Of a stretch of DNA of 64,000 nucleotides, positions 6,868 to 39,490 are shown piece by piece. The first letter of the stretch is position 1. Each line of letters starts with the position of its first letter. This stretch comes from Candidatus Heimdallarchaeum endolithica (GTDB lineage: Archaea > Asgardarchaeota > Heimdallarchaeia > Heimdallarchaeales > Heimdallarchaeaceae), in assembly GCA_021513715.1 (NCBI GenBank), contig CP084167.1:1440001-1504000 (forward strand), in the 5' to 3' direction. The translations under genes and the position numbers were made by a program. The notes under the pieces are model-generated. The model saw only the letters and a list, made by a program, of their open reading frames with translations, was not told the origin of the DNA and searched no databases.

Positions 6868-8478
6868 ATGAATACATTTGGTATAATTGTCAGTTATTTG
6901 AGGAAAGGAAGATTATTTTCAGTCTCTCCAAATACTGTTTTATTACCAAACGATATTTTATTATTGTCCATCAAGAGTAATATTCAACATTTATATTTTC
7001 AAGAATGGTTGAAAGACGAGAAATTAGTTATTAATATTATTTCACCTATTGGTACAATTGTTGATAGTTTAGATGTGGATCTTAAATATACTGGACTAGA
7101 AGAGTTTTATTCTTTTGAAGTATCTGAAAATCTTTATTCAGGTGTCTATATTTTATCAATTCAAGGTAAGAATACAAAAATTAAGAAAAAAATCACTATA
7201 AAAACAAAAAGGAAATTGATCAATCACTATATTCTTACTTATGGAACTGAAATTTGTAACACAAGCGAAGATAATATTACAGAGTTAATTGTTGATGTTG
7301 TAATTCCACCAAGCATAGCGCAATTTCAAGAAGTTCAAGGAATAAAATTTAGCTTTAAACCTATTGAGAAGAAATGTGACAAGGATGGAAATTGCTGGGC
7401 AAGATTTTATTTTCCAATAGTTTATCCAAATGAGAAGATAAATTTAGAATACAAGGCTCTAGTTACTACAAGGATTATAGGATATGATGTTACAAGAATA
7501 AAAACGATAAGAGAATTAGATGAGATAAGCTATGAATTTTTTGAGAGATATACTAGAGATGAACCTTTTATTGAAAGCGATGATATTTTAATAAAAAGAG
7601 TTACACACTCACTGAAATCAGAAAATCCAATTGATAAAGCAATTAATATTCTAAGTTACGTACAAAATAACATTAATTACAAACAAGAATTGGGTGACTT
7701 TGGTGCAAAATATGCAATAAGAGCAAAAAGAGGAGACTGCACAGAATTTGCAAGTTTGTTTGTAGGAATGTGTAGAGCCGCTAAAATTCCAGCAAGACTT
7801 GCGACAAGCTTAATAAAAGAAGAAGGTATAAAATGGGAAAAACATTCTTATGCTGAATTTTTTGCCAAAGGTATTTGGTGGCAAATAGACCCCACCCTAA
7901 ATACTGATAAACAATATTTGATAAGAAATCCAGAGAATATTGTATTATTAAGGGGAAATTCACTAGCTAAAACCCATATTAAAGAAATAAGGTATTCACA
8001 TTCAGATCTAAAAAAGAGAAAAGTAAGTTTCAAAATCCATTGGAAAGTTGATGAAGTAAAGAACTTCACCCAGAATAAAGAAAAAAACAGCCATATTTGG
8101 ACTAAACAAAGTAACATATTGCATGTAGAACAAAAAGAAGAAAGAAGAGACAGCATAAGTGAAAATAAAGAAAGTTTCATTTCAATAAATGTGCCTACTT
8201 TACCTGAAGTTTCTACTGGTTCAATCTATAAGGTTCCTGTAAGATTAATTAATAACTCATCATTGGAAATATCTGGAACATTAGTTGTTTCAATTAATCG
8301 CGGGGGAATATTTATCAGTCAGCTTTACCAAAGGACTATAAAAGCAAAGTCAAATATTGGTATTGTTGTTGATATTCCTGCTCAAAGTTATTTTGGCCCT
8401 GCAAAAATCGAATTTGTTTTTCAGGATAACACTGGTTTTATATTCTGCAAATCAGAAAAAAAGATTCAATTTCAATAG
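6868..8478 (+). CDS. Transglutaminase-like (Cys-His-Asp) domain protein
   Basis: GDCTEFASLFVGMCRAAKIPAR, HSYAEF and WWQIDPT give an intact catalytic triad; flanking beta-sandwich-like regions. Confidence 0.85.
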   Translation: MNTFGIIVSYLRKGRLFSVSPNTVLLPNDILLLSIKSNIQHLYFQEWLKDEKLVINIISPIGTIVDSLDVDLKYTGLEEFYSFEVSENLYSGVYILSIQGKNTKIKKKITIKTKRKLINHYILTYGTEICNTSEDNITELIVDVVIPPSIAQFQEVQGIKFSFKPIEKKCDKDGNCWARFYFPIVYPNEKINLEYKALVTTRIIGYDVTRIKTIRELDEISYEFFERYTRDEPFIESDDILIKRVTHSLKSENPIDKAINILSYVQNNINYKQELGDFGAKYAIRAKRGDCTEFASLFVGMCRAAKIPARLATSLIKEEGIKWEKHSYAEFFAKGIWWQIDPTLNTDKQYLIRNPENIVLLRGNSLAKTHIKEIRYSHSDLKKRKVSFKIHWKVDEVKNFTQNKEKNSHIWTKQSNILHVEQKEERRDSISENKESFISINVPTLPEVSTGSIYKVPVRLINNSSLEISGTLVVSINRGGIFISQLYQRTIKAKSNIGIVVDIPAQSYFGPAKIEFVFQDNTGFIFCKSEKKIQFQ

Positions 8479-9304: not shown

Positions 9305-12300
9305 TTAAACCCCAGTTATTGCTTCTGTTCTTGAGCCTAGGATGATGTTTGTAAAGACTAAACTGAGTATTTGTAGGATCATCAAAATCACTCCTAAAGC
9401 GCAGAATATTTGGAATCTAGCATTTACTTGATTTGCCATCATCCATGTTAATGTTCCACCAAGTTCGGATGTGATAAGAAAAACTGTGGTTGAGACTTCT
9501 GACAAGCAATACAAAAATGAGACAAGACTTCCTGCAAATACATTAAGAGAAATCATAGGTACAGTGATTTTGGCAAAGGTTTTCATTCTACCGGCCCCCA
9601 GATTAAATGATGACTCCTCGAGCACTTTATCCATTTGTTGCAAACCAGCATAAGCTGCTCTAACAGTGAATGGAAACTTACGAATCGTATATGAGAGTAT
9701 TAAAAGTACATAGGCAATTCCCACGAAAGGATCAAGATGTGCTTTAACTGCAAATTTATTCATAAATAAGTTAAATGAATTAGGATTGTTAGTAAAAATC
9801 GTACCCCAGTCAAAAGTACGATAATATCCAAGAGCTAGAACAATTCCAGGTATAGCAATTGGAATTGTAACCAGAGAGTCAAATGCAGCTTTTCCTTTAA
9901 ACTCTTTTCTACTTACCACATAAGCTGCTAGTGAACCTAGAATAACAATTAAAATTGTTGCAGCGAAACTATACAGTAAAGTATTCCTAACAAAACTTGG
10001 GATATTGTACTGTGAAGAAACAAAGACAAGTCTATAGTTTTCCAAAGTAAAACTCATATTTTTTATGCTAGAAGAGCCTAGAGTTTCGCTTATTGACATC
10101 ATTATTATACCAACATGCACAATTAAAGAAAGTGCAAATAAGATAACTAGGAAGGGATAAATGAACAATAGTTTCCATTTAGCTTTACTTAATCTATATT
10201 GACCTGCTCTTCCTTTGGAAACCATTGAATATTGTCTTAGTGAAACATATTTTCGTATAACTAAAAATCCTGCAATAGCTATTACTAAGAGTAGACCTCC
10301 TAAAACACATACTTCAGGTGTTATGATATTAGAGCTAGAAAGTTGAAAGTCTGAAAAAATAAAATAGGTCAAAAATTGCCTTGCAAAATTATCCCCCATA
10401 CCAACAAAGATAATTGGTGTCCCCACATCCTCCATTGATAAGATTAGTACTAAAATTGCTCCTGCACCGATTCCAGGAAGAGCTAAAGGCAAAGTCACTG
10501 TAAAGAATAATCTAAAACTTCCAGCACCAAGATTTTCAGCTTGTTCTTCCATGCTTGGATCAACATTTACAAATGAAGAGAAGGCATTCAAATAAACTAA
10601 TGCATAGAAATGAAAGCTTTGTACAAAACAAATAGCAACAAAACCCTCAATAATTAGTCTTGAATGAAAGACAGGAATAAGGAAAAAGTTGTTAAGTAAT
10701 CCATTCGGGCCTAAAAAGTATCTGAAACCCATACCACTTATAAAAGGTGGGATAATTAAGGGGGCAAGAGCTAGAATACTAAAGAACTTCTTTCCAGGAA
10801 ATTCATATCGTGCTAAAATAAAAGCTAGTGCAGTACCTAAAAGAACTGAAACGAGAGTAGTCACAACCCCAAGAATTAAAGTATTAAGAACTATTCCTCT
10901 TGATACTCCTACCAATTTGTAAGTTGTGATTTCAATATTATCCTGATATTGGAATATTTTCTTGAATTCAGTCATATTTTGACTATCTAAAATAAGTACA
11001 CCATCTCCTCCATTTGCAACATAAACAAAGCCAGAGATTGGTTCATAAAAGATGTCTTCAACACCAACTATTCCCAGACTATAAGATAGAAGATGGGATA
11101 CATTTAAAGGATCAGAAACATCATAAACTTCTATACTATAAAAATCGCCTATTTTAGAAGTTATGAATGCTTTATTATCAAAAATATTGATATTATCTGC
11201 ACGTCTGCTTTCTATGTGTACCAAGGTAATGTTAGAGGGTTCAGAGATATCGAGAATTACAAAACCTGTACTACCCAGAGATAAAAATGCATAATTATCA
11301 ACAATTTGAATTTCCTTTGCTCTTAGACTTATACCATCAATCTCTTCAATTCTTGAGAACAAAGAAGGATTAGATGGGTCTGAAATATCAAAAATCATTA
11401 ATCGCGAATACGAACCAACCAAATAGGCATAATCATCTTTAATTTGAATGTCATCTGAATCTGTTTCTATTGTAACATTACTAATTAATTTTGGTTCAAA
11501 AGGATCACTAATATCATAAATTAAGAAACCATCATCTTGATAATCAAGAAAAGCGTAGTTTCCATGAATAGTAATAAACTCAGTTTTATTTGTAGGAATC
11601 GGAGTTATTGAAACTATATCAATACCCTGCTTAATATTACTCATGTTAAATATCATTAATCCTTGTCTTGAATCAGAAGCAAAAAGTAATTCTTCGCTTT
11701 GTGCAATATCTGTAACAAAACTATTGTCAAACTTTATCTGGTTGACTTCTTCGATATTATTGTAATCAGTTACATTAAGGACCTCAATACCTTCAAAACC
11801 TTCAGCAGTATAAATATAACCGTCAGAATAGATTATAGATTTAGCATATCCTCCAAATTCAAAATTCTGGTTTTTTGTGAAAAAGGATGTTGAAGGGTCA
11901 CCCTTAAAATTAAAGAATTTTTCATCTGAAAAAACGTGTCCAAAAGCGTAAAAGGTTATTTGTCCTGACTCTTGGAGATAAATAGCAACATTTACTAAAT
12001 ATTCTCCTGTCCCTTTATTTGAATAAACCACAATATCCCATGAAACAACCCCAGATTCAGGTAGATCAGGGGATTTAATGACCACACGTTCAGTCTTAGT
12101 TTTTGAAGAATAGTACTTAGCATTTGGAATAGAATTTTCTTCAGCATCACCATCTAAATTCCCACCAGTACGTCTACCTTGATGATCTATCACAGATAAA
12201 TCAAAATCTGAATCTTTAGGTGGTTGAAGAAAAATAATAACTTTACCTATTCCTTCTGTAGCATTAATATTAAACGAATGATAAGGTCCTGATTGGTGAA

Positions 12301-12541
12301 CAGCAGTTATTTCATCTCTAAATGCGAAAGTCTCTGCTGCACTTGGAATATAAACTGCACCAGAAAGGATTAACAAGAGAGGTATAACCATCCAAATGAT
12401 AAATACAATAGAAATAATCCCTATAACAACATTAGTTGAAGGATCGCGTAAAAGCTTTACATAAAGCGTATCAATAATATTTCTTTTTCTTTTTAGCTTT
12501 CTTTTTTCCTTTTTTTTCTTATTTAGACTTAAAGTGGCCAT
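9305..12541 (-). CDS. Fe3+/thiamine-type ABC transporter permease (two permease domains) with a large extracellular PPC-like plus LVIVD-repeat insertion
   Basis: Two EAA loops (EEQAENLGA, EESSFNLGA); PLIIPPFI and PIAIPGIV motifs; repeated GLMIFNMSN / GFLIYDISDP / LMIFDISDPSNP / GFVILDISEP LVIVD repeats after TM1. Confidence 0.85.
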   Translation of the reverse strand: MATLSLNKKKKEKRKLKRKRNIIDTLYVKLLRDPSTNVVIGIISIVFIIWMVIPLLLILSGAVYIPSAAETFAFRDEITAVHQSGPYHSFNINATEGIGKVIIFLQPPKDSDFDLSVIDHQGRRTGGNLDGDAEENSIPNAKYYSSKTKTERVVIKSPDLPESGVVSWDIVVYSNKGTGEYLVNVAIYLQESGQITFYAFGHVFSDEKFFNFKGDPSTSFFTKNQNFEFGGYAKSIIYSDGYIYTAEGFEGIEVLNVTDYNNIEEVNQIKFDNSFVTDIAQSEELLFASDSRQGLMIFNMSNIKQGIDIVSITPIPTNKTEFITIHGNYAFLDYQDDGFLIYDISDPFEPKLISNVTIETDSDDIQIKDDYAYLVGSYSRLMIFDISDPSNPSLFSRIEEIDGISLRAKEIQIVDNYAFLSLGSTGFVILDISEPSNITLVHIESRRADNINIFDNKAFITSKIGDFYSIEVYDVSDPLNVSHLLSYSLGIVGVEDIFYEPISGFVYVANGGDGVLILDSQNMTEFKKIFQYQDNIEITTYKLVGVSRGIVLNTLILGVVTTLVSVLLGTALAFILARYEFPGKKFFSILALAPLIIPPFISGMGFRYFLGPNGLLNNFFLIPVFHSRLIIEGFVAICFVQSFHFYALVYLNAFSSFVNVDPSMEEQAENLGAGSFRLFFTVTLPLALPGIGAGAILVLILSMEDVGTPIIFVGMGDNFARQFLTYFIFSDFQLSSSNIITPEVCVLGGLLLVIAIAGFLVIRKYVSLRQYSMVSKGRAGQYRLSKAKWKLLFIYPFLVILFALSLIVHVGIIMMSISETLGSSSIKNMSFTLENYRLVFVSSQYNIPSFVRNTLLYSFAATILIVILGSLAAYVVSRKEFKGKAAFDSLVTIPIAIPGIVLALGYYRTFDWGTIFTNNPNSFNLFMNKFAVKAHLDPFVGIAYVLLILSYTIRKFPFTVRAAYAGLQQMDKVLEESSFNLGAGRMKTFAKITVPMISLNVFAGSLVSFLYCLSEVSTTVFLITSELGGTLTWMMANQVNARFQIFCALGVILMILQILSLVFTNIILGSRTEAITGV

Positions 12542-16041: not shown

Positions 16042-16485
16042 TTATATTTGGCCCCAAGAAATAAATTTTCCATCTTTTCTTTTAACTAAAACAGAACCAA
16101 ATTTTCTCCATTGTTCTTCTCTAAATCTAATAATTTGAAATTCATCTTGAGAAGATTTCATTTTTAGTTGGAGTAACTCTGCAAGAGAAAGTTTTTTCTC
16201 GTAAAAAAGTCGAGTAATGTATTTTCCCTCTCTATCTCCTAGACTGACCTCCTTTGCCAAATTTAATAAATGTAAAACAGGAAGGTTAGAAAATAAAGGT
16301 TGGTGAGAAGAGGTATATACTGAACCTGGACAAATAGATTCATTTTTGTATTCTTCAACACATTTTTTACAAAAAATTAATTGACACCCGTTACATATTT
16401 TCCACTCTTCAAGCACAGCCTCTTTTAATGAAGATTGATTTTTACAAAAAGCACATTTCACATAGAAATCTAAAATATTAGTCAC
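16042..16485 (-). CDS. RING-like zinc-finger protein (Nse1-RING-like)
   Basis: CAFC-x16-CNGC-x4-CKKC-x9-CP-x7-H; its GTG start overlaps the stop of the upstream gene (GTGA). Confidence 0.65.
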   Translation of the reverse strand: MTNILDFYVKCAFCKNQSSLKEAVLEEWKICNGCQLIFCKKCVEEYKNESICPGSVYTSSHQPLFSNLPVLHLLNLAKEVSLGDREGKYITRLFYEKKLSLAELLQLKMKSSQDEFQIIRFREEQWRKFGSVLVKRKDGKFISWGQI

Positions 16486-17060
16486 AGCTTTTCATACTCC
16501 TCTTTAATTTTTGTCCTTTCATCTTCATCAAACTCAAGGAGAGTTCTGTAATTGTAATCTATTAGATTTGATTTTCGTTTAATATATCCTTTATACGTGA
16601 GAGATCTTATGCTCTCACTTACAATATACTCTTTTAAATAGTCATTAGATGTTAAAAACTCTTTAATCTTTTTAGTTGTAATTTTTTTCCCTGATTCTCT
16701 TAAACCCACTATTATCCCTAAAACAATTAATTCTACCTCATTTAGTTCTGGAGGAGCGAAATAGTTTGATTTTAAGCACAACCAAGTTTCATTAACTATT
16801 TTGTAATTGACTAATTCCAACCCAAGAATAGAAATAAAAATCTTATATTCTTCTAAAATATTTTCGAGTGTTGCTATATCCACCCTAGTTACTATCAACA
16901 AACCTTGTTGAGATACACCAAAAACTTCTACATTATCTTTTATCCATCTTCTAGTTAATATTGTTGTTAGTTCCCTAAATAATTCTTGTTTCTCTTTATC
17001 TGTAATTAAAGGAGACAATTTTTGTTCTTTATCTGTAATTTCATTTTTCATTTCATTCAT
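16482..17060 (-). CDS. Tandem winged-helix (KITE, Nse1/Nse3/ScpB-like) SMC accessory subunit
   Basis: ISILGLELV...WLCL, LNEVELIVLGII and SIRSLTYKGYIKR...YNYRTLLEF resemble Nse1 WH-A/WH-B patterns; in an operon with the SMC gene. Confidence 0.6.
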   Translation of the reverse strand: MNEMKNEITDKEQKLSPLITDKEKQELFRELTTILTRRWIKDNVEVFGVSQQGLLIVTRVDIATLENILEEYKIFISILGLELVNYKIVNETWLCLKSNYFAPPELNEVELIVLGIIVGLRESGKKITTKKIKEFLTSNDYLKEYIVSESIRSLTYKGYIKRKSNLIDYNYRTLLEFDEDERTKIKEEYEKL

Positions 17061-24620: not shown

Positions 24621-24820
24621 AGTTAATTTTTTGTACAATTTTCTCCTACTACGTCAGTGGAAGAATACAAACGCTAAAACAGATGTTTGAGCATACTGAC
24701 ATCATCTAGGAATCGTGGGACGCATAAAGAAGAGTAGAACTCTTCACTCCACGAGTACTAAGTATTCTACCATTATGGTATAATAGTACATAGGTCTATT
24801 TCAACCACTGGTTGAGACCC
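24621..24820 (-). ncRNA. Putative omegaRNA (reRNA) scaffold of the TnpB element
   Basis: About 175 nt between the tnpB stop and the element end, packed with nested stems: GTCAGT/ACTGAC, CAAAC/GTTTG, TCGTGG/CCACGA, GAAGAGT/ACTCTTC, GTACTA/TAGTAC, TACCA/TGGTA, TCAACCA/TGGTTGA. Confidence 0.65.
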
Positions 24821-26310
24821 CGGAAGGAAGTATAAAAGGTGAGACTAAAGTGTTGTCCAGTAAGATAATCAACTAGTGTAGATGCTCGGGGACGAAAAAG
24901 AAAACGAAGAAACAATTTCCCGATGTTGATTGCACAGGTAAGGTCAGAGTGAAGAGTATAATGGCAATGAGAACAATAAACAAGACCTCTAACAGGTCGA
25001 ATAGTCTTTCGTCCACATTTTGAGCAAAGAGAAGAGGTAAGATATTCCTGTAAGGTGAGGATACGTTCGGGTTCTAACCCATTTAGAAGACACATTCGTC
25101 GAAGAAGAGTAACTATTTGGTAGTAATTCCACGGGTGAACCTTTTTACGAGTAAAACGGGTAGAGGAGTTCTGTGGTCTGTAGTCTTGATTCATTACTTT
25201 TTTTCTTAATTTCGAGTGTACTCCCTTGGGGTAACCAACAACAACGACTAAATTATAATCCTGTGTAAGTTCAACAATATCTTTCCACAACTCATTAATA
25301 AAAGCATATAAATAAGCATGAGAGAGCGTCTGATATCTTTTTCTTAATTTTTTTAATGTTTGATATCCTTTATTGCTTCTTTTGTCTTTACATGTATTCT
25401 TCTTTTTTGCAAGTTTTCGTTGCAATCTTCTTATTTTCTGTTGATAGATATACTTCCTTTTTTTCCATTCTTTCATTTTCCAGAAGAAAATATGATTGGG
25501 AGATATTTTACCTGTTGATGTTAATAACACTCCTGCTCCAGGTATTTTTTCTCCCAGATCTATTCCCAGCACAGCTGGAGGAAGAAGAGAAGGGTCAACT
25601 TTTTTTTTCTTGTAGAGATCTGCTTGAGGAATAATTGTTATCTGAAAATTTACCCACCAACTGTTTTTTTGTGAGTTATATTTTAATTCTAGACTTTTTA
25701 CTTGTCCTTTTCTTATTTCTTTTTGGTGATATTCACTCATTTCTAGTGGTATCCATAGTCTTCGATGTGTTCGTTTTTTTCTTTTTTGTGTGTCTAATGA
25801 GTCTCTTATCCCTACCCAGCAACGAGAAAGAGTGTTTTTCCCTTTAGGCAAATGTTCTATGATAAATCTATTTTTATTGATTAGTTGTTTTCTTGTTCGT
25901 TTTACTGGTGGTAAAATATATCCTTTTTTTCTTTTTCTATTCTTTTTTTTGTTATATCCTTGTTCATAAAGTTGTACTGCTACATCTCTACACTCTTGAA
26001 ATTCATCGTGAGAACAATTAGGAAACTTTTTTTTGAGATCATAGGGTACAACTGTCCTTTTTTTCTTATTTGTTTTCTTTGTTGTTGTTAGTGTTAGTTC
26101 ATCTAACTTGCCTTTATGCACTTTTAGTCTTATCTCTCCTTGTTTGCTTATTTTTCTTATTACTTTTTCTTCTTCTTTTCTTATTATTTTTACATATTCT
26201 TCTATTATTCTAGTATCTCTTCCTGTTATCTTTCTCATTCTATCTTTTTTGAACTTCGTTAATTTTTCTGTTTTTACTCTTACTCTTAATGTTCTCACTA
26301 TTTTCTCCAT
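24796..26310 (-). CDS. tnpB: TnpB-family RNA-guided endonuclease with rearranged (Fanzor-like) RuvC-II
   Basis: RuvC-I VLGIDLG; canonical RuvC-II position reads VVVGYP (G instead of E); alternative Glu in LQEYLTSSLC; zinc finger CSKC...CSHC; RuvC-III HSDLTCAINI; highly basic, 504 aa. Confidence 0.9.
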   Translation of the reverse strand: MEKIVRTLRVRVKTEKLTKFKKDRMRKITGRDTRIIEEYVKIIRKEEEKVIRKISKQGEIRLKVHKGKLDELTLTTTKKTNKKKRTVVPYDLKKKFPNCSHDEFQECRDVAVQLYEQGYNKKKNRKRKKGYILPPVKRTRKQLINKNRFIIEHLPKGKNTLSRCWVGIRDSLDTQKRKKRTHRRLWIPLEMSEYHQKEIRKGQVKSLELKYNSQKNSWWVNFQITIIPQADLYKKKKVDPSLLPPAVLGIDLGEKIPGAGVLLTSTGKISPNHIFFWKMKEWKKRKYIYQQKIRRLQRKLAKKKNTCKDKRSNKGYQTLKKLRKRYQTLSHAYLYAFINELWKDIVELTQDYNLVVVVGYPKGVHSKLRKKVMNQDYRPQNSSTRFTRKKVHPWNYYQIVTLLRRMCLLNGLEPERILTLQEYLTSSLCSKCGRKTIRPVRGLVYCSHCHYTLHSDLTCAINIGKLFLRFLFRPRASTLVDYLTGQHFSLTFYTSFRGLNQWLK

Positions 26311-37426: not shown

Positions 37427-39490
37427 CTGCAATTCAAGAGAAGTGACGTTTTTAATTTAGAATCAATAGAAGTCTCATTACCAACTAGATTTCAAAACAT
37501 TATACTAAAGAAACTTTATCTATTTAGAGAATTAAATATACAAAAGATTGCAGAACAATTAACAATAGAACCTGATAAAGTTAAAGAATATATTCGATTT
37601 CTAATTCAAAGCATGGTTTTAAGAGGGTTTTATAAAAAAGAGACATTTTACGTTAATGCTTTCTATTTATGGCCATTTGTTGAATCACTTAATCTAAACG
37701 AATTACAATATATAATTATGGGTTTATTGTCTTCCAAAAGAGTTATGCCCTTTACTGATGTTGCTAACTTCTTAAAACTAACTAAAGAACAACTAATATT
37801 ACAACTAGAAAACTTGATCTATCGAGGAGTTATTATTTGTTATATTAAAAAAAACAATATTGTAACTGACTGGATATGGAGACCATTAGAAGAAATTAAG
37901 ATTTCCAATCAAGATATCTGCATAATTGGAACTGCAATGATGCTCAGAAAAGCTAATATTGAAAACATTGCAAAGTTATTAAAATATCCAAAAGAAGAAG
38001 TTATACAAAAAATTTCTAAATTACTTTTATTTAGAAAAATAGAAGCTGAATTCATCATTAAAACTAATTTTTTTGCTAAAGATACTATTTCAATAATTGT
38101 TAAAAAATTCATCATCCAACCTGAGAAAAAAGATTTAAGTTTACTTCCCGCAAATGAAAAAGAGGTTGTAGGCTTTCTTTTACTTACAAAAAAAGCAAAG
38201 TTAAAAACAATTAGTCGATTTATAGAAAAACCGATTCATGAAACAGTTTCATTACTTGCTTCGTTAACTGCAAGAGGTACATTTCAATTCATTTTTACAT
38301 CAAAAAACACCGTTAGACCTGTTCTCGTACCAGATATGAAACCTACAAGAACAATAGAAGAAATGTCCTCCTTATCTTTCTTCAACTATGAAGCCTTATT
38401 AGGCATGTTAACCACGAGAAAGAAGATAAAAGTTAAGAAACTTTCTTTTTGGATGAATAGAGAAGACGATGAAATCATTGAAGCGTTAATTAACTTGTAC
38501 CTAGAAGGCTTCATATCATGTACTTTAGTAAGAAAAGTAATATACATTGATGGAATATTTCAATATAGTAGAACACAAGAAGGGAGTTTAGAACGGTGGG
38601 AAAAAATAATTCTTGGGATGGTTATCGCAAAAACTGTTATCTCTGTAAAAGATATAAAGAAATCTTTTTGTACAGAAAATCTCATAGCACGTGAAAAATT
38701 ATATTCCTTCTATGGAAAAGGACTAATAAAAGGAGAATTAATAGATTATAGAGTTAACAGTAAATTAATTCCAAAAGAGATACCTATCTTTCCTCCTCTA
38801 AATCAAATTGAAGATTTTCCAATTCACTATCAGGAAATCTTTGGATATATAGTTTCAAATATTACAGTAAAAGTTCCAATAATGGCTAAATTATGGAATA
38901 AAAGCAAAAATGCAATCAAAAACATCATTTATGAGTTAACAGGAGCAGGGCTGACAAATGTCATTCAAAATCGTAACACCTTTATTCTACAATCAGCCCA
39001 GAAATATTATCCAACACAAGAAATAAACTCATTAGGCCATGAATATGTACAAATAATTAACGAGATTGAGAAAAGTAAAAGAAGAAGAGTAAAAATAGAG
39101 AATATTCAGAAAAGAGTAAATATTCCTAAGAACGACATTTTCAAGATTATTTGTCAATTATTAGCTCATGGTTATTACAAGGGCACAATTTCAGAAAAAG
39201 TATTCATTAAAAAAGGAAAACTTATTCTTCCTGCTGGAAAACTTAAATGTTACTACTGTGGGCACATTATTGAAGATAGCCACCGCCCTTGTCCAAATTG
39301 TTCAAAGTCACAGCCATTATGTATTATTTGTAACGGTTTAATTAAAAAAGGACAAGATCTACTTGAATGCCCCAATTGCGAAAATGTTGGGCATAAAGAG
39401 CATATGCTTAAATGGATTTCAATAAAAGAAGAATGCCCAATTTGTAAAACGCAGATATCCAAAAGGAATCTTGTAGAAAAAACAGCTTAA
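37427..39490 (+). CDS. Tandem winged-helix (PCI-like) repeat protein with C-terminal zinc ribbon and RING-H2-like finger; probable CTG start
   Basis: About 8 WH-like repeats; C-terminus CYYC..CPNC..CIIC..CPNC..GHKEH..W..CPIC; frame is open to 37421 and GGTGA (37416-37420) precedes CTG at 37427. Confidence 0.72.
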   Translation: MQFKRSDVFNLESIEVSLPTRFQNIILKKLYLFRELNIQKIAEQLTIEPDKVKEYIRFLIQSMVLRGFYKKETFYVNAFYLWPFVESLNLNELQYIIMGLLSSKRVMPFTDVANFLKLTKEQLILQLENLIYRGVIICYIKKNNIVTDWIWRPLEEIKISNQDICIIGTAMMLRKANIENIAKLLKYPKEEVIQKISKLLLFRKIEAEFIIKTNFFAKDTISIIVKKFIIQPEKKDLSLLPANEKEVVGFLLLTKKAKLKTISRFIEKPIHETVSLLASLTARGTFQFIFTSKNTVRPVLVPDMKPTRTIEEMSSLSFFNYEALLGMLTTRKKIKVKKLSFWMNREDDEIIEALINLYLEGFISCTLVRKVIYIDGIFQYSRTQEGSLERWEKIILGMVIAKTVISVKDIKKSFCTENLIAREKLYSFYGKGLIKGELIDYRVNSKLIPKEIPIFPPLNQIEDFPIHYQEIFGYIVSNITVKVPIMAKLWNKSKNAIKNIIYELTGAGLTNVIQNRNTFILQSAQKYYPTQEINSLGHEYVQIINEIEKSKRRRVKIENIQKRVNIPKNDIFKIICQLLAHGYYKGTISEKVFIKKGKLILPAGKLKCYYCGHIIEDSHRPCPNCSKSQPLCIICNGLIKKGQDLLECPNCENVGHKEHMLKWISIKEECPICKTQISKRNLVEKTA

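Follow-up and report, generated by a model that had tools for sequence, protein, structure and literature searches.

A stand-alone RING-like gene beside the KITE gene of an Asgard Smc5/6-like operon, and its relation to Nse1

In the Smc5/6 complex of eukaryotes, RING-type domains are carried by Nse1 and Nse2. Nse1 (NSMCE1) is one chain in which a tandem winged-helix KITE part is followed by an eight-ligand RING-like domain with a C-x2-C-x4-X-x2-C core, and it belongs with an Smc5/6-type SMC and a kleisin. Nse2 (Mms21) is a separate subunit, an SP-RING SUMO ligase that tolerates a degenerate first zinc site. In archaea, a ubiquitin operon of Caldiarchaeum reportedly clusters the genes for E1, E2, JAB, the modifier and a small RING E3. 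The zinc ligands of human NSE1 are C191, C194, C204, C207, H212, C215, C228 and C231; zinc site 1 matters more than site 2 in the human protein, and the RING of NSE1 helps to stabilise the human Smc5/6 complex (PMC11335289). Archaeal SMC-kleisin-kite operons related to SMC5/6, with three subunits, have already been published; there the Nse1 RING is called a eukaryotic innovation that is absent in archaeal kites, and both this RING and the Nse2 ligase are treated as eukaryotic additions in the current reconstruction of SMC history (10.1101/2024.01.07.573240).

The locus described here lies in the genome of Candidatus Heimdallarchaeum endolithica, the assembly of which is one contig of 3.33 Mb and is 92.6% complete. 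Within the window, the stretch of 64,000 nucleotides that was analysed, four overlapping minus-strand genes form one operon encoding an Smc6-like SMC, a kleisin-like protein, a KITE protein and a RING-like protein, the KITE gene and the RING-like gene being the last two (Table 1). An earlier note on this DNA had read these two genes as a split Nse1. Both genes are real, and their reading frames and 4-nt overlap lie where the note had placed them. The operon resembles the published archaeal ones in its three-gene core, its Nse1/3-type kite and its Asgard distribution, whereas the published account mentions neither a fourth, RING-like gene nor a linked ubiquitin-like cascade; a literature search, with subscription journals outside its coverage, found no description of the fourth gene either. 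We consider it fairly likely that the RING-like protein is a stand-alone subunit that was originally linked with a ubiquitin-like cascade of its own and has been kept here without that cascade.

Table 1. Features of the locus (positions in the window)
Feature	Position	Strand	Basis
Smc5/6-like SMC ATPase, 992 aa	17748..20726	-	Pfam SMC_N, SMC_hinge; yeast Smc6 best PDB sequence match
Kleisin-like subunit, 232 aa	17053..17751	-	position, size, conservation
KITE subunit, tandem winged helix, 189-192 aa, Nse1/Nse3-type (modelled)	16482..17060	-	AlphaFold2 model, fold search
4-nt stop/start overlap GTGA	16482..16485	-	sequence; contig bridging; junction comparison
Stand-alone RING-like protein, 147 aa, GTG start	16042..16485	-	conserved in 62 Asgard genomes; model, fold searches
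Two-zinc RING/U-box-like domain (predicted), residues 9-69	16279..16461	-	alignments, pLDDT, fold Z scores
Conserved C-terminal block (EEQW...KRKDGKF..W), predicted beta-rich, residues 122-147	16045..16122	-	column identity; predicted strands
Transglutaminase-like gene	6868..8478	+	Pfam Transglut_core 3.4e-20; module-linked profile E 4.8e-73

The SMC, kleisin-like and KITE subunits

The SMC protein matches Pfam SMC_N (2.3e-13) and, above cut-off, SMC_hinge. At full length its best match among PDB sequences is yeast Smc6 (E 3.3e-12), with Smc3 second (5.1e-11); the C-terminal lobe alone, for which Smc3 is ranked first, does not discriminate. It is the sole match in a search of the genome with the hinge family (PF06470). 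Neither ScpA nor ScpB was matched in this genome, and ScpB was not matched in 47 genomes of the order. As the only hinge-bearing SMC found, in a genome where ScpA and ScpB were not found, it probably belongs to the main SMC complex of the cell. The 232-aa gene is conserved between the SMC and KITE genes in all loci read, and its product has no Pfam family match and no kleisin match in a PDB sequence search; it is called kleisin-like from its position, size and conservation. In one other genome (G031), the SMC and kleisin-like genes are separated by a 193-aa gene on the other strand that looks TATA-binding-protein-like by eye (L031:6265-6846, +). A promoter and terminator scan, run with a sigma-70 model that is ill-suited to archaea, stayed at chance level.

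Translation of the KITE gene probably starts at Met4, giving 189 rather than 192 aa. Its AlphaFold2 model (pLDDT 87.5) is a tandem winged helix, and the full-length matches in the fold search are Nse3, Nse1, ScpB and MukE: Z is 11.6 for 7dg2_C, which we take to be an Nse3 chain (rmsd 3.8 over 165 residues), 10.4 for NSE1 5hvq_C (rmsd 4.1 over 160 residues) and 10.0-10.3 for ScpB. With this fold, and encoded as it is with an SMC and, by position, a kleisin, the protein is, on the modelled structure, a KITE of the Nse1/Nse3 type. Nse1-specific identity, the other part of the split-Nse1 reading, was not supported. The structure scores nearly tie, and the modelled KITE appears at least as close to Nse3 as to Nse1. 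Profiles agree with this: among KITE orthologs, MAGE (0.0011), SMC_Nse1 (0.0021) and MksE (0.0023) match about equally and all under the cut-off. The check with SMC_Nse1 (PF07574) that had been proposed finds the window KITE unmatched, and the few orthologs that do match (E 0.002-0.015) stay under the cut-off and are matched equally by MAGE. A KITE profile returned nothing significant from PDB sequences, and an ESM Atlas search with the KITE gave Asgard clusters only. Since the Asgard operon has a single KITE gene, its KITE presumably forms a homodimer, unlike the Nse1/Nse3 pair.

The zinc domain and the conserved tail

In alignments, the ligands of the RING-like protein are C11-x2-C14-x16-C31-x2-C34-x4-C39-x2-C42-x9-C52-P, followed by an invariant His, H61, nine residues past C52, so that the last pair is C-x8-H; in several homologs it is C-x4-C. 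Among homologs there is hardly any variation at ligands 3, 4 and 7; ligand 2 varies, ligand 5 is either C or D but in no case His, and P0060 and P0062 lack ligands 1, 2, 5 and 6 altogether. That 1, 2, 5 and 6 vary or vanish together while 3, 4 and 7 stay is the pattern which a cross-brace of the two sites would predict. The model of the protein has a pLDDT of 84-93 over residues 11-70, and RING and U-box domains prevail among the matches of three fold searches with it (RNF4 RING, Z 5.5; Prp19 U-box, Z 5.0-5.5), the best Z being only 5.0-5.7. Comparable scores are given by ZZ domains (4.1-4.8), the PML B-box (4.1) and an archaeal 30S ribosomal zinc protein (5.7). With fold scores of this middling order, the zinc domain of the 147-aa protein can be described with fair confidence as RING/U-box-like, as far as a predicted model allows.

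No Pfam RING model matches the window protein above cut-off. The weak Pfam hints among its homologs are spread over IBR, B-box, FYVE (in four members) and RING; profiles of the RING-like and kleisin-like families returned nothing significant from PDB sequences, and all ESM Atlas leads for the RING-like protein stayed under 0.9. The FYVE signature is R(R/K)HHCR, and the PHD finger is C4HC3 with a Trp ahead of the last Cys pair. Neither motif is present in the alignments, so the FYVE/PHD type was rejected, and the RING-type fold for which the earlier note had argued is supported. Of the Nse1 RING spacing that it had also claimed, ligands 3-6 bear it out (x2/x4/x2, with Cys at the position of the His), whereas the rest departs from it: the pattern is C7H (or C8) ending in C-x8-H, in contrast to C4HC3 ending in CxxC in Nse1, and loop 1 is x16, in contrast to x9 in NSE1. 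PF08746, the profile of the Nse1 RING with which the note had proposed to check the domain, does not match the gene, and Nse1 chains are absent among the best 50 matches listed for the RING-like model in the three fold searches, where lower-ranking ones may still occur.

About 80 residues follow the zinc domain. Mean column identity is 0.69 in the C-terminal block against 0.50 in the zinc domain, and residues 122-147, where the model predicts strands, are the most conserved part of the protein. The block is missing from short stand-alone paralogs, which align over the zinc domain only, and is a candidate docking or DNA-contact element. The same zinc domain also occurs without SMC genes and in fusions with Ras-like GTPases or coiled coils, and can thus be regarded as a mobile module. 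It is C-terminal in coiled-coil proteins, in a SWIM-like protein (by eye) and in Ras-like GTPases (P0067, P0069, P0071, P0073, P0079, P0082, P0084, P0087 and P0088). A short paralog of 110-130 aa precedes a transglutaminase gene in families f12 and f6 (L068:8141-8536, L073:17503-17901).

Is the protein, then, a relative of Nse2? It would in that case be a stand-alone ligase subunit akin to the Nse2/Mms21 SP-RING, binding an SMC arm or the kleisin and serving a SUMO-like modifier. Like Nse2, it has its own gene, and each of the three fold lists includes Mms21/Nse2 SP-RING chains (7qcd_C, Z 4.5; 3htk_C, 4.3; 7p47_A, 4.0); moreover, a degenerate site 1 (Asp as ligand 5; complete loss in both P0060 and P0062) and the C-x4-C last pair of several homologs are features in which it resembles SP-RINGs. 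However, these Z values are tied with those of dozens of unrelated RINGs, and the zf-Nse family (PF11789) does not match the gene. The window protein keeps eight ligands and is not of the single-zinc kind, most Asgard members likewise keep both zinc sites, and the protein has no N-terminal SMC-binding helices, the domain order of Nse2 being opposite to its own. In addition, the gene is linked to the KITE gene, and after rearrangement it stays with KITE, not with the SMC. A kinship with Nse2 is thus quite improbable.

The junction, the gene linkage and Nse1

Contigs from three studies bridge the overlap at 16482-16485 gap-free and with no indel; the check that the earlier note had suggested therefore shows a real junction, and an assembly error at this point is ruled out. 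All 49 distinct orthologous KITE-RING junctions contain a stop codon. The two frames are in the -1 relation in 39 of them and in the other two relations in ten, and the junctions range from overlaps to gaps of up to about 40 nt, many of 20-40 nt. No slippery heptamer is found at the window junction, and none is conserved among the 49. As the SMC/kleisin-like junction has the same kind of 4-nt overlap, and as other families have gaps and other frames, the overlap is no latent frameshift: GTGA is ordinary translational coupling. The earlier idea that a small frameshift at GTGA would create an Nse1-like protein fails on the stop codons and on the three frame relations. A hidden fusion, in which a programmed -1 frameshift or an error of assembly joins KITE and RING, would fit the predominance of the -1 relation, but it is contradicted by the intact contigs, the ten junctions in other frames, the many gaps and the missing heptamer, and is very improbable.

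Fused versions, which the earlier note had proposed to look for in other Asgard genomes, were not found among the 49 junctions or the 64 representative matches. No RING-like homolog of 243-397 aa scores with the KITE profile, the 'near' search with KITE returned only proteins of 189-239 aa, and a search for longer KITE proteins (420-2000 aa) gave nothing, which is weak evidence.

Strong KITE matches and full-length RING-like matches are held by the same 62 of 400 Asgard genomes, in eight families; genomes within a family are kin, so that the independent cases are nearer eight than sixty. In 60 of the 62 the two genes are adjacent on one contig, and the linkage on which the earlier note had staked its reading is thereby borne out beyond this genome. 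As for the remaining two, one pair is split by a contig end and the other (G086) appears uncoupled. On two metagenomic contigs (L095, L097), SMC-kleisin and KITE-RING face away from each other; as the latter pair is intact where the former has flipped away, the KITE-RING unit outlasts rearrangement. KITE followed by the RING-like gene is also the order on two more short contigs, one with 70% GC. The association is not without exceptions: four distant homologs of the RING-like protein have no KITE upstream, and there are Asgard Smc5/6-like operons without the RING-like gene (L058-L060, L066, L067). The 70% GC contig (L092), possibly bacterial, carries KITE, the RING-like gene and the start of a JAB-like gene, which suggests transfer of the module.

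Does the pair descend from the one whose fusion made eukaryotic Nse1? Its gene order matches the domain order of Nse1, its KITE is of the modelled Nse1/Nse3 type beside an Smc6-like SMC, ligands 3-6 have the C-x2-C-x4-X-x2-C spacing of NSE1, and no other unit of the operon is as stable as the pair. This spacing is not specific to Nse1, being also that of B-box, PHD and FYVE domains. Other points speak against such a descent as well. His does not occur at ligand 5, and the last ligand is either H at x8 or C at x4; PF08746 is unmatched, and the KITE lies no further from Nse3 than from Nse1; the conserved tail of 80 residues has no counterpart that could be found; and no fusion has turned up. NSE1 relies most on zinc site 1, which is the variable site here, and, on the other side, the vRING of Nse1 adjoins WH-B (PMC8750328), as the order of the two Asgard genes would have it. 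On balance we regard this descent as doubtful, and equally doubtful the claim that the pair is an unfused Nse1 ancestor and that an Smc5/6-type complex including a RING ligase subunit, together with a ubiquitin-like cascade, was already present in the Asgard ancestor of eukaryotes. If it were true, the ligase arm of Smc5/6 would have been inherited and fused, not invented in eukaryotes. By the tests run, the RING-like gene and KITE, two chains in contrast to the one chain of Nse1, are not members of the Nse1 family; by analogy, the pair may work like the KITE-plus-RING arm of Smc5/6.

A ubiquitin-like cascade and the proposed role of the subunit

In families f6, f8 and f29, JAB and ThiF/E1 genes come directly after the RING-like gene, followed in f6 by a Ubl-like gene of 105 aa ending in VG and an E2-like gene (HPR...AC motif; UQ_con 0.008). 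In f12, the SMC gene has a Ubl-like gene, an E2-like gene and a RING-like paralog upstream in divergent orientation, with E1 and JAB beside them. The Ubl genes, which have no Pfam match, are so called from position, size and C-terminus. The RING-like family is present in all 32 genomes with the cognate E2, and the RING-like gene is kept in about 32 genomes without it. Profile searches found no cognate E2 in 47 genomes of the window's order; in this genome they found no cognate Ubl or E2, and E1 and JAB as distant paralogs only. A Ubl profile over the order, in a search that lacked a positive control, gave no match. Thus the link between SMC biology and ubiquitin that the earlier note had drawn holds as the JAB/E1/Ubl/E2 context of related Asgard families; since the cognate module was not found in this genome, the link is inherited context and not a local one. 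The arrangement also differs from that of Caldiarchaeum: the RING-like gene is part of an SMC operon, the modifier has a terminal VG in place of GG, and searches of the window's lineage did not turn up the cascade.

Directly after ligand 6, 19 of 20 cascade-bearing orthologs have a hydrophobic residue, whereas 24 of 27 orthologs of family f1 have Lys; Val is kept in the window's genus. At the level of sequence this change may hint at decay, and it counts as one inherited change. The positions of the RING helix are hydrophobic in 19-20 of the 20 cascade-bearing orthologs.

Another explanation is that the domain is no ligase part at all but a zinc module recruited independently, such as a ZZ/B-box-like adaptor or a DNA-binding accessory, the likeness to Nse1 being convergent. 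The fold scores of ZZ, the PML B-box and the archaeal 30S zinc protein, which equal those of RINGs, would agree with this, as would the scattered Pfam hints, the retention of the gene in about 32 genomes without a cognate E2 and the basic character of the conserved tail. It would leave unexplained why JAB-E1-Ubl-E2 genes are direct neighbours in several families, and on the 70% GC contig too, and why the helix positions are hydrophobic in the cascade-bearing orthologs. We hold this explanation to be unlikely.

According to the preferred reading, that of a subunit kept after its cascade, the 147-aa protein would belong to an archaeal Smc5/6-like complex as its dedicated fourth subunit, beside an SMC dimer, a kleisin and a KITE dimer. 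It would be made as its own chain, translationally coupled to the KITE gene, and its predicted cross-braced RING-like fold would dock on the kleisin-KITE module, probably via the conserved C-terminal block. Its ancestral job may have been that of an E3-like adaptor of the private cascade (JAB, E1, Ubl, E2), which would since have been lost in this lineage. Here the subunit is probably mostly structural; it would be kept chiefly for a structural or regulatory role in the main SMC complex and may have been rewired to another E2. Elsewhere the genome encodes three canonical E2s as well as RING-H2 proteins.

A complex prediction for two KITE chains, the kleisin-like chain and the RING-like partner gave a score of 0.50, against 0.00 for the best of three controls; the runs agree in at least 50% of contacts, and the pLDDT of the partner is at least 51. 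In the calibration, 58 of 80 solved complexes and 2 of 110 mismatches came up to the mark; only 7 of the 80, but both mismatches, did so with a score of 0.60 or under, and a four-chain job is unlike those of the calibration. The score may partly reflect the solved structure of a like complex, Nse1-Nse3-Nse4. The control in which the kleisin-like chain was replaced and both KITEs were kept scored 0.00, which is not evidence against a KITE contact. The prediction thus lends weak support to a complex of the RING-like partner with KITE and the kleisin-like chain.

Direct ancestor of Nse1 or not, a conserved Asgard RING-like fourth subunit, with a cascade in several families, challenges the view of these ligases as eukaryotic additions, and the link of Smc5/6 to protein-tagging ligases may be older than eukaryotes. 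With this lineage lacking a cognate E2 and others having both, nature has set up an experiment on the old question whether the RING of Smc5/6 serves mainly as ligase or as scaffold, and the parts are all small and open to reconstitution.

Several other genes were seen on the way. The transglutaminase-like gene of Table 1, 7.5 kb off, is the nearest local match to the gene found with the module in f6 and f12, and is possibly a relic of the lost module. Outside the window, a cluster at G000:C1:531553-534414 contains ThiF/E1, a JAB-like gene of 351 aa, a gene of 88 aa whose product ends in GVVGL, and an E2-like gene with a weak match (PF00179, E 0.035); the SMC-linked Ubl and E2 profiles do not match it, and it is a candidate replacement partner. 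At G000:C1:1704001-1711991, also outside the window, a canonical-looking ubiquitin (ending in GGF), an E1, an E2-domain protein and a small GTPase lie beside ESCRT-like genes. In the window, a 625-aa reading frame at 37613-39490 (+) has a C-terminal zf-RING_2 at E 3.2e-5, just under the cut-off, and is one of seven in the genome. A basic, TnpB-like reading frame of 504 aa at 24796-26310 (-) appears to interrupt a galT-like gene, and an ABC permease of 1078 aa at 9305-12541 (-) has a large repeat-containing insert between its membrane segments.
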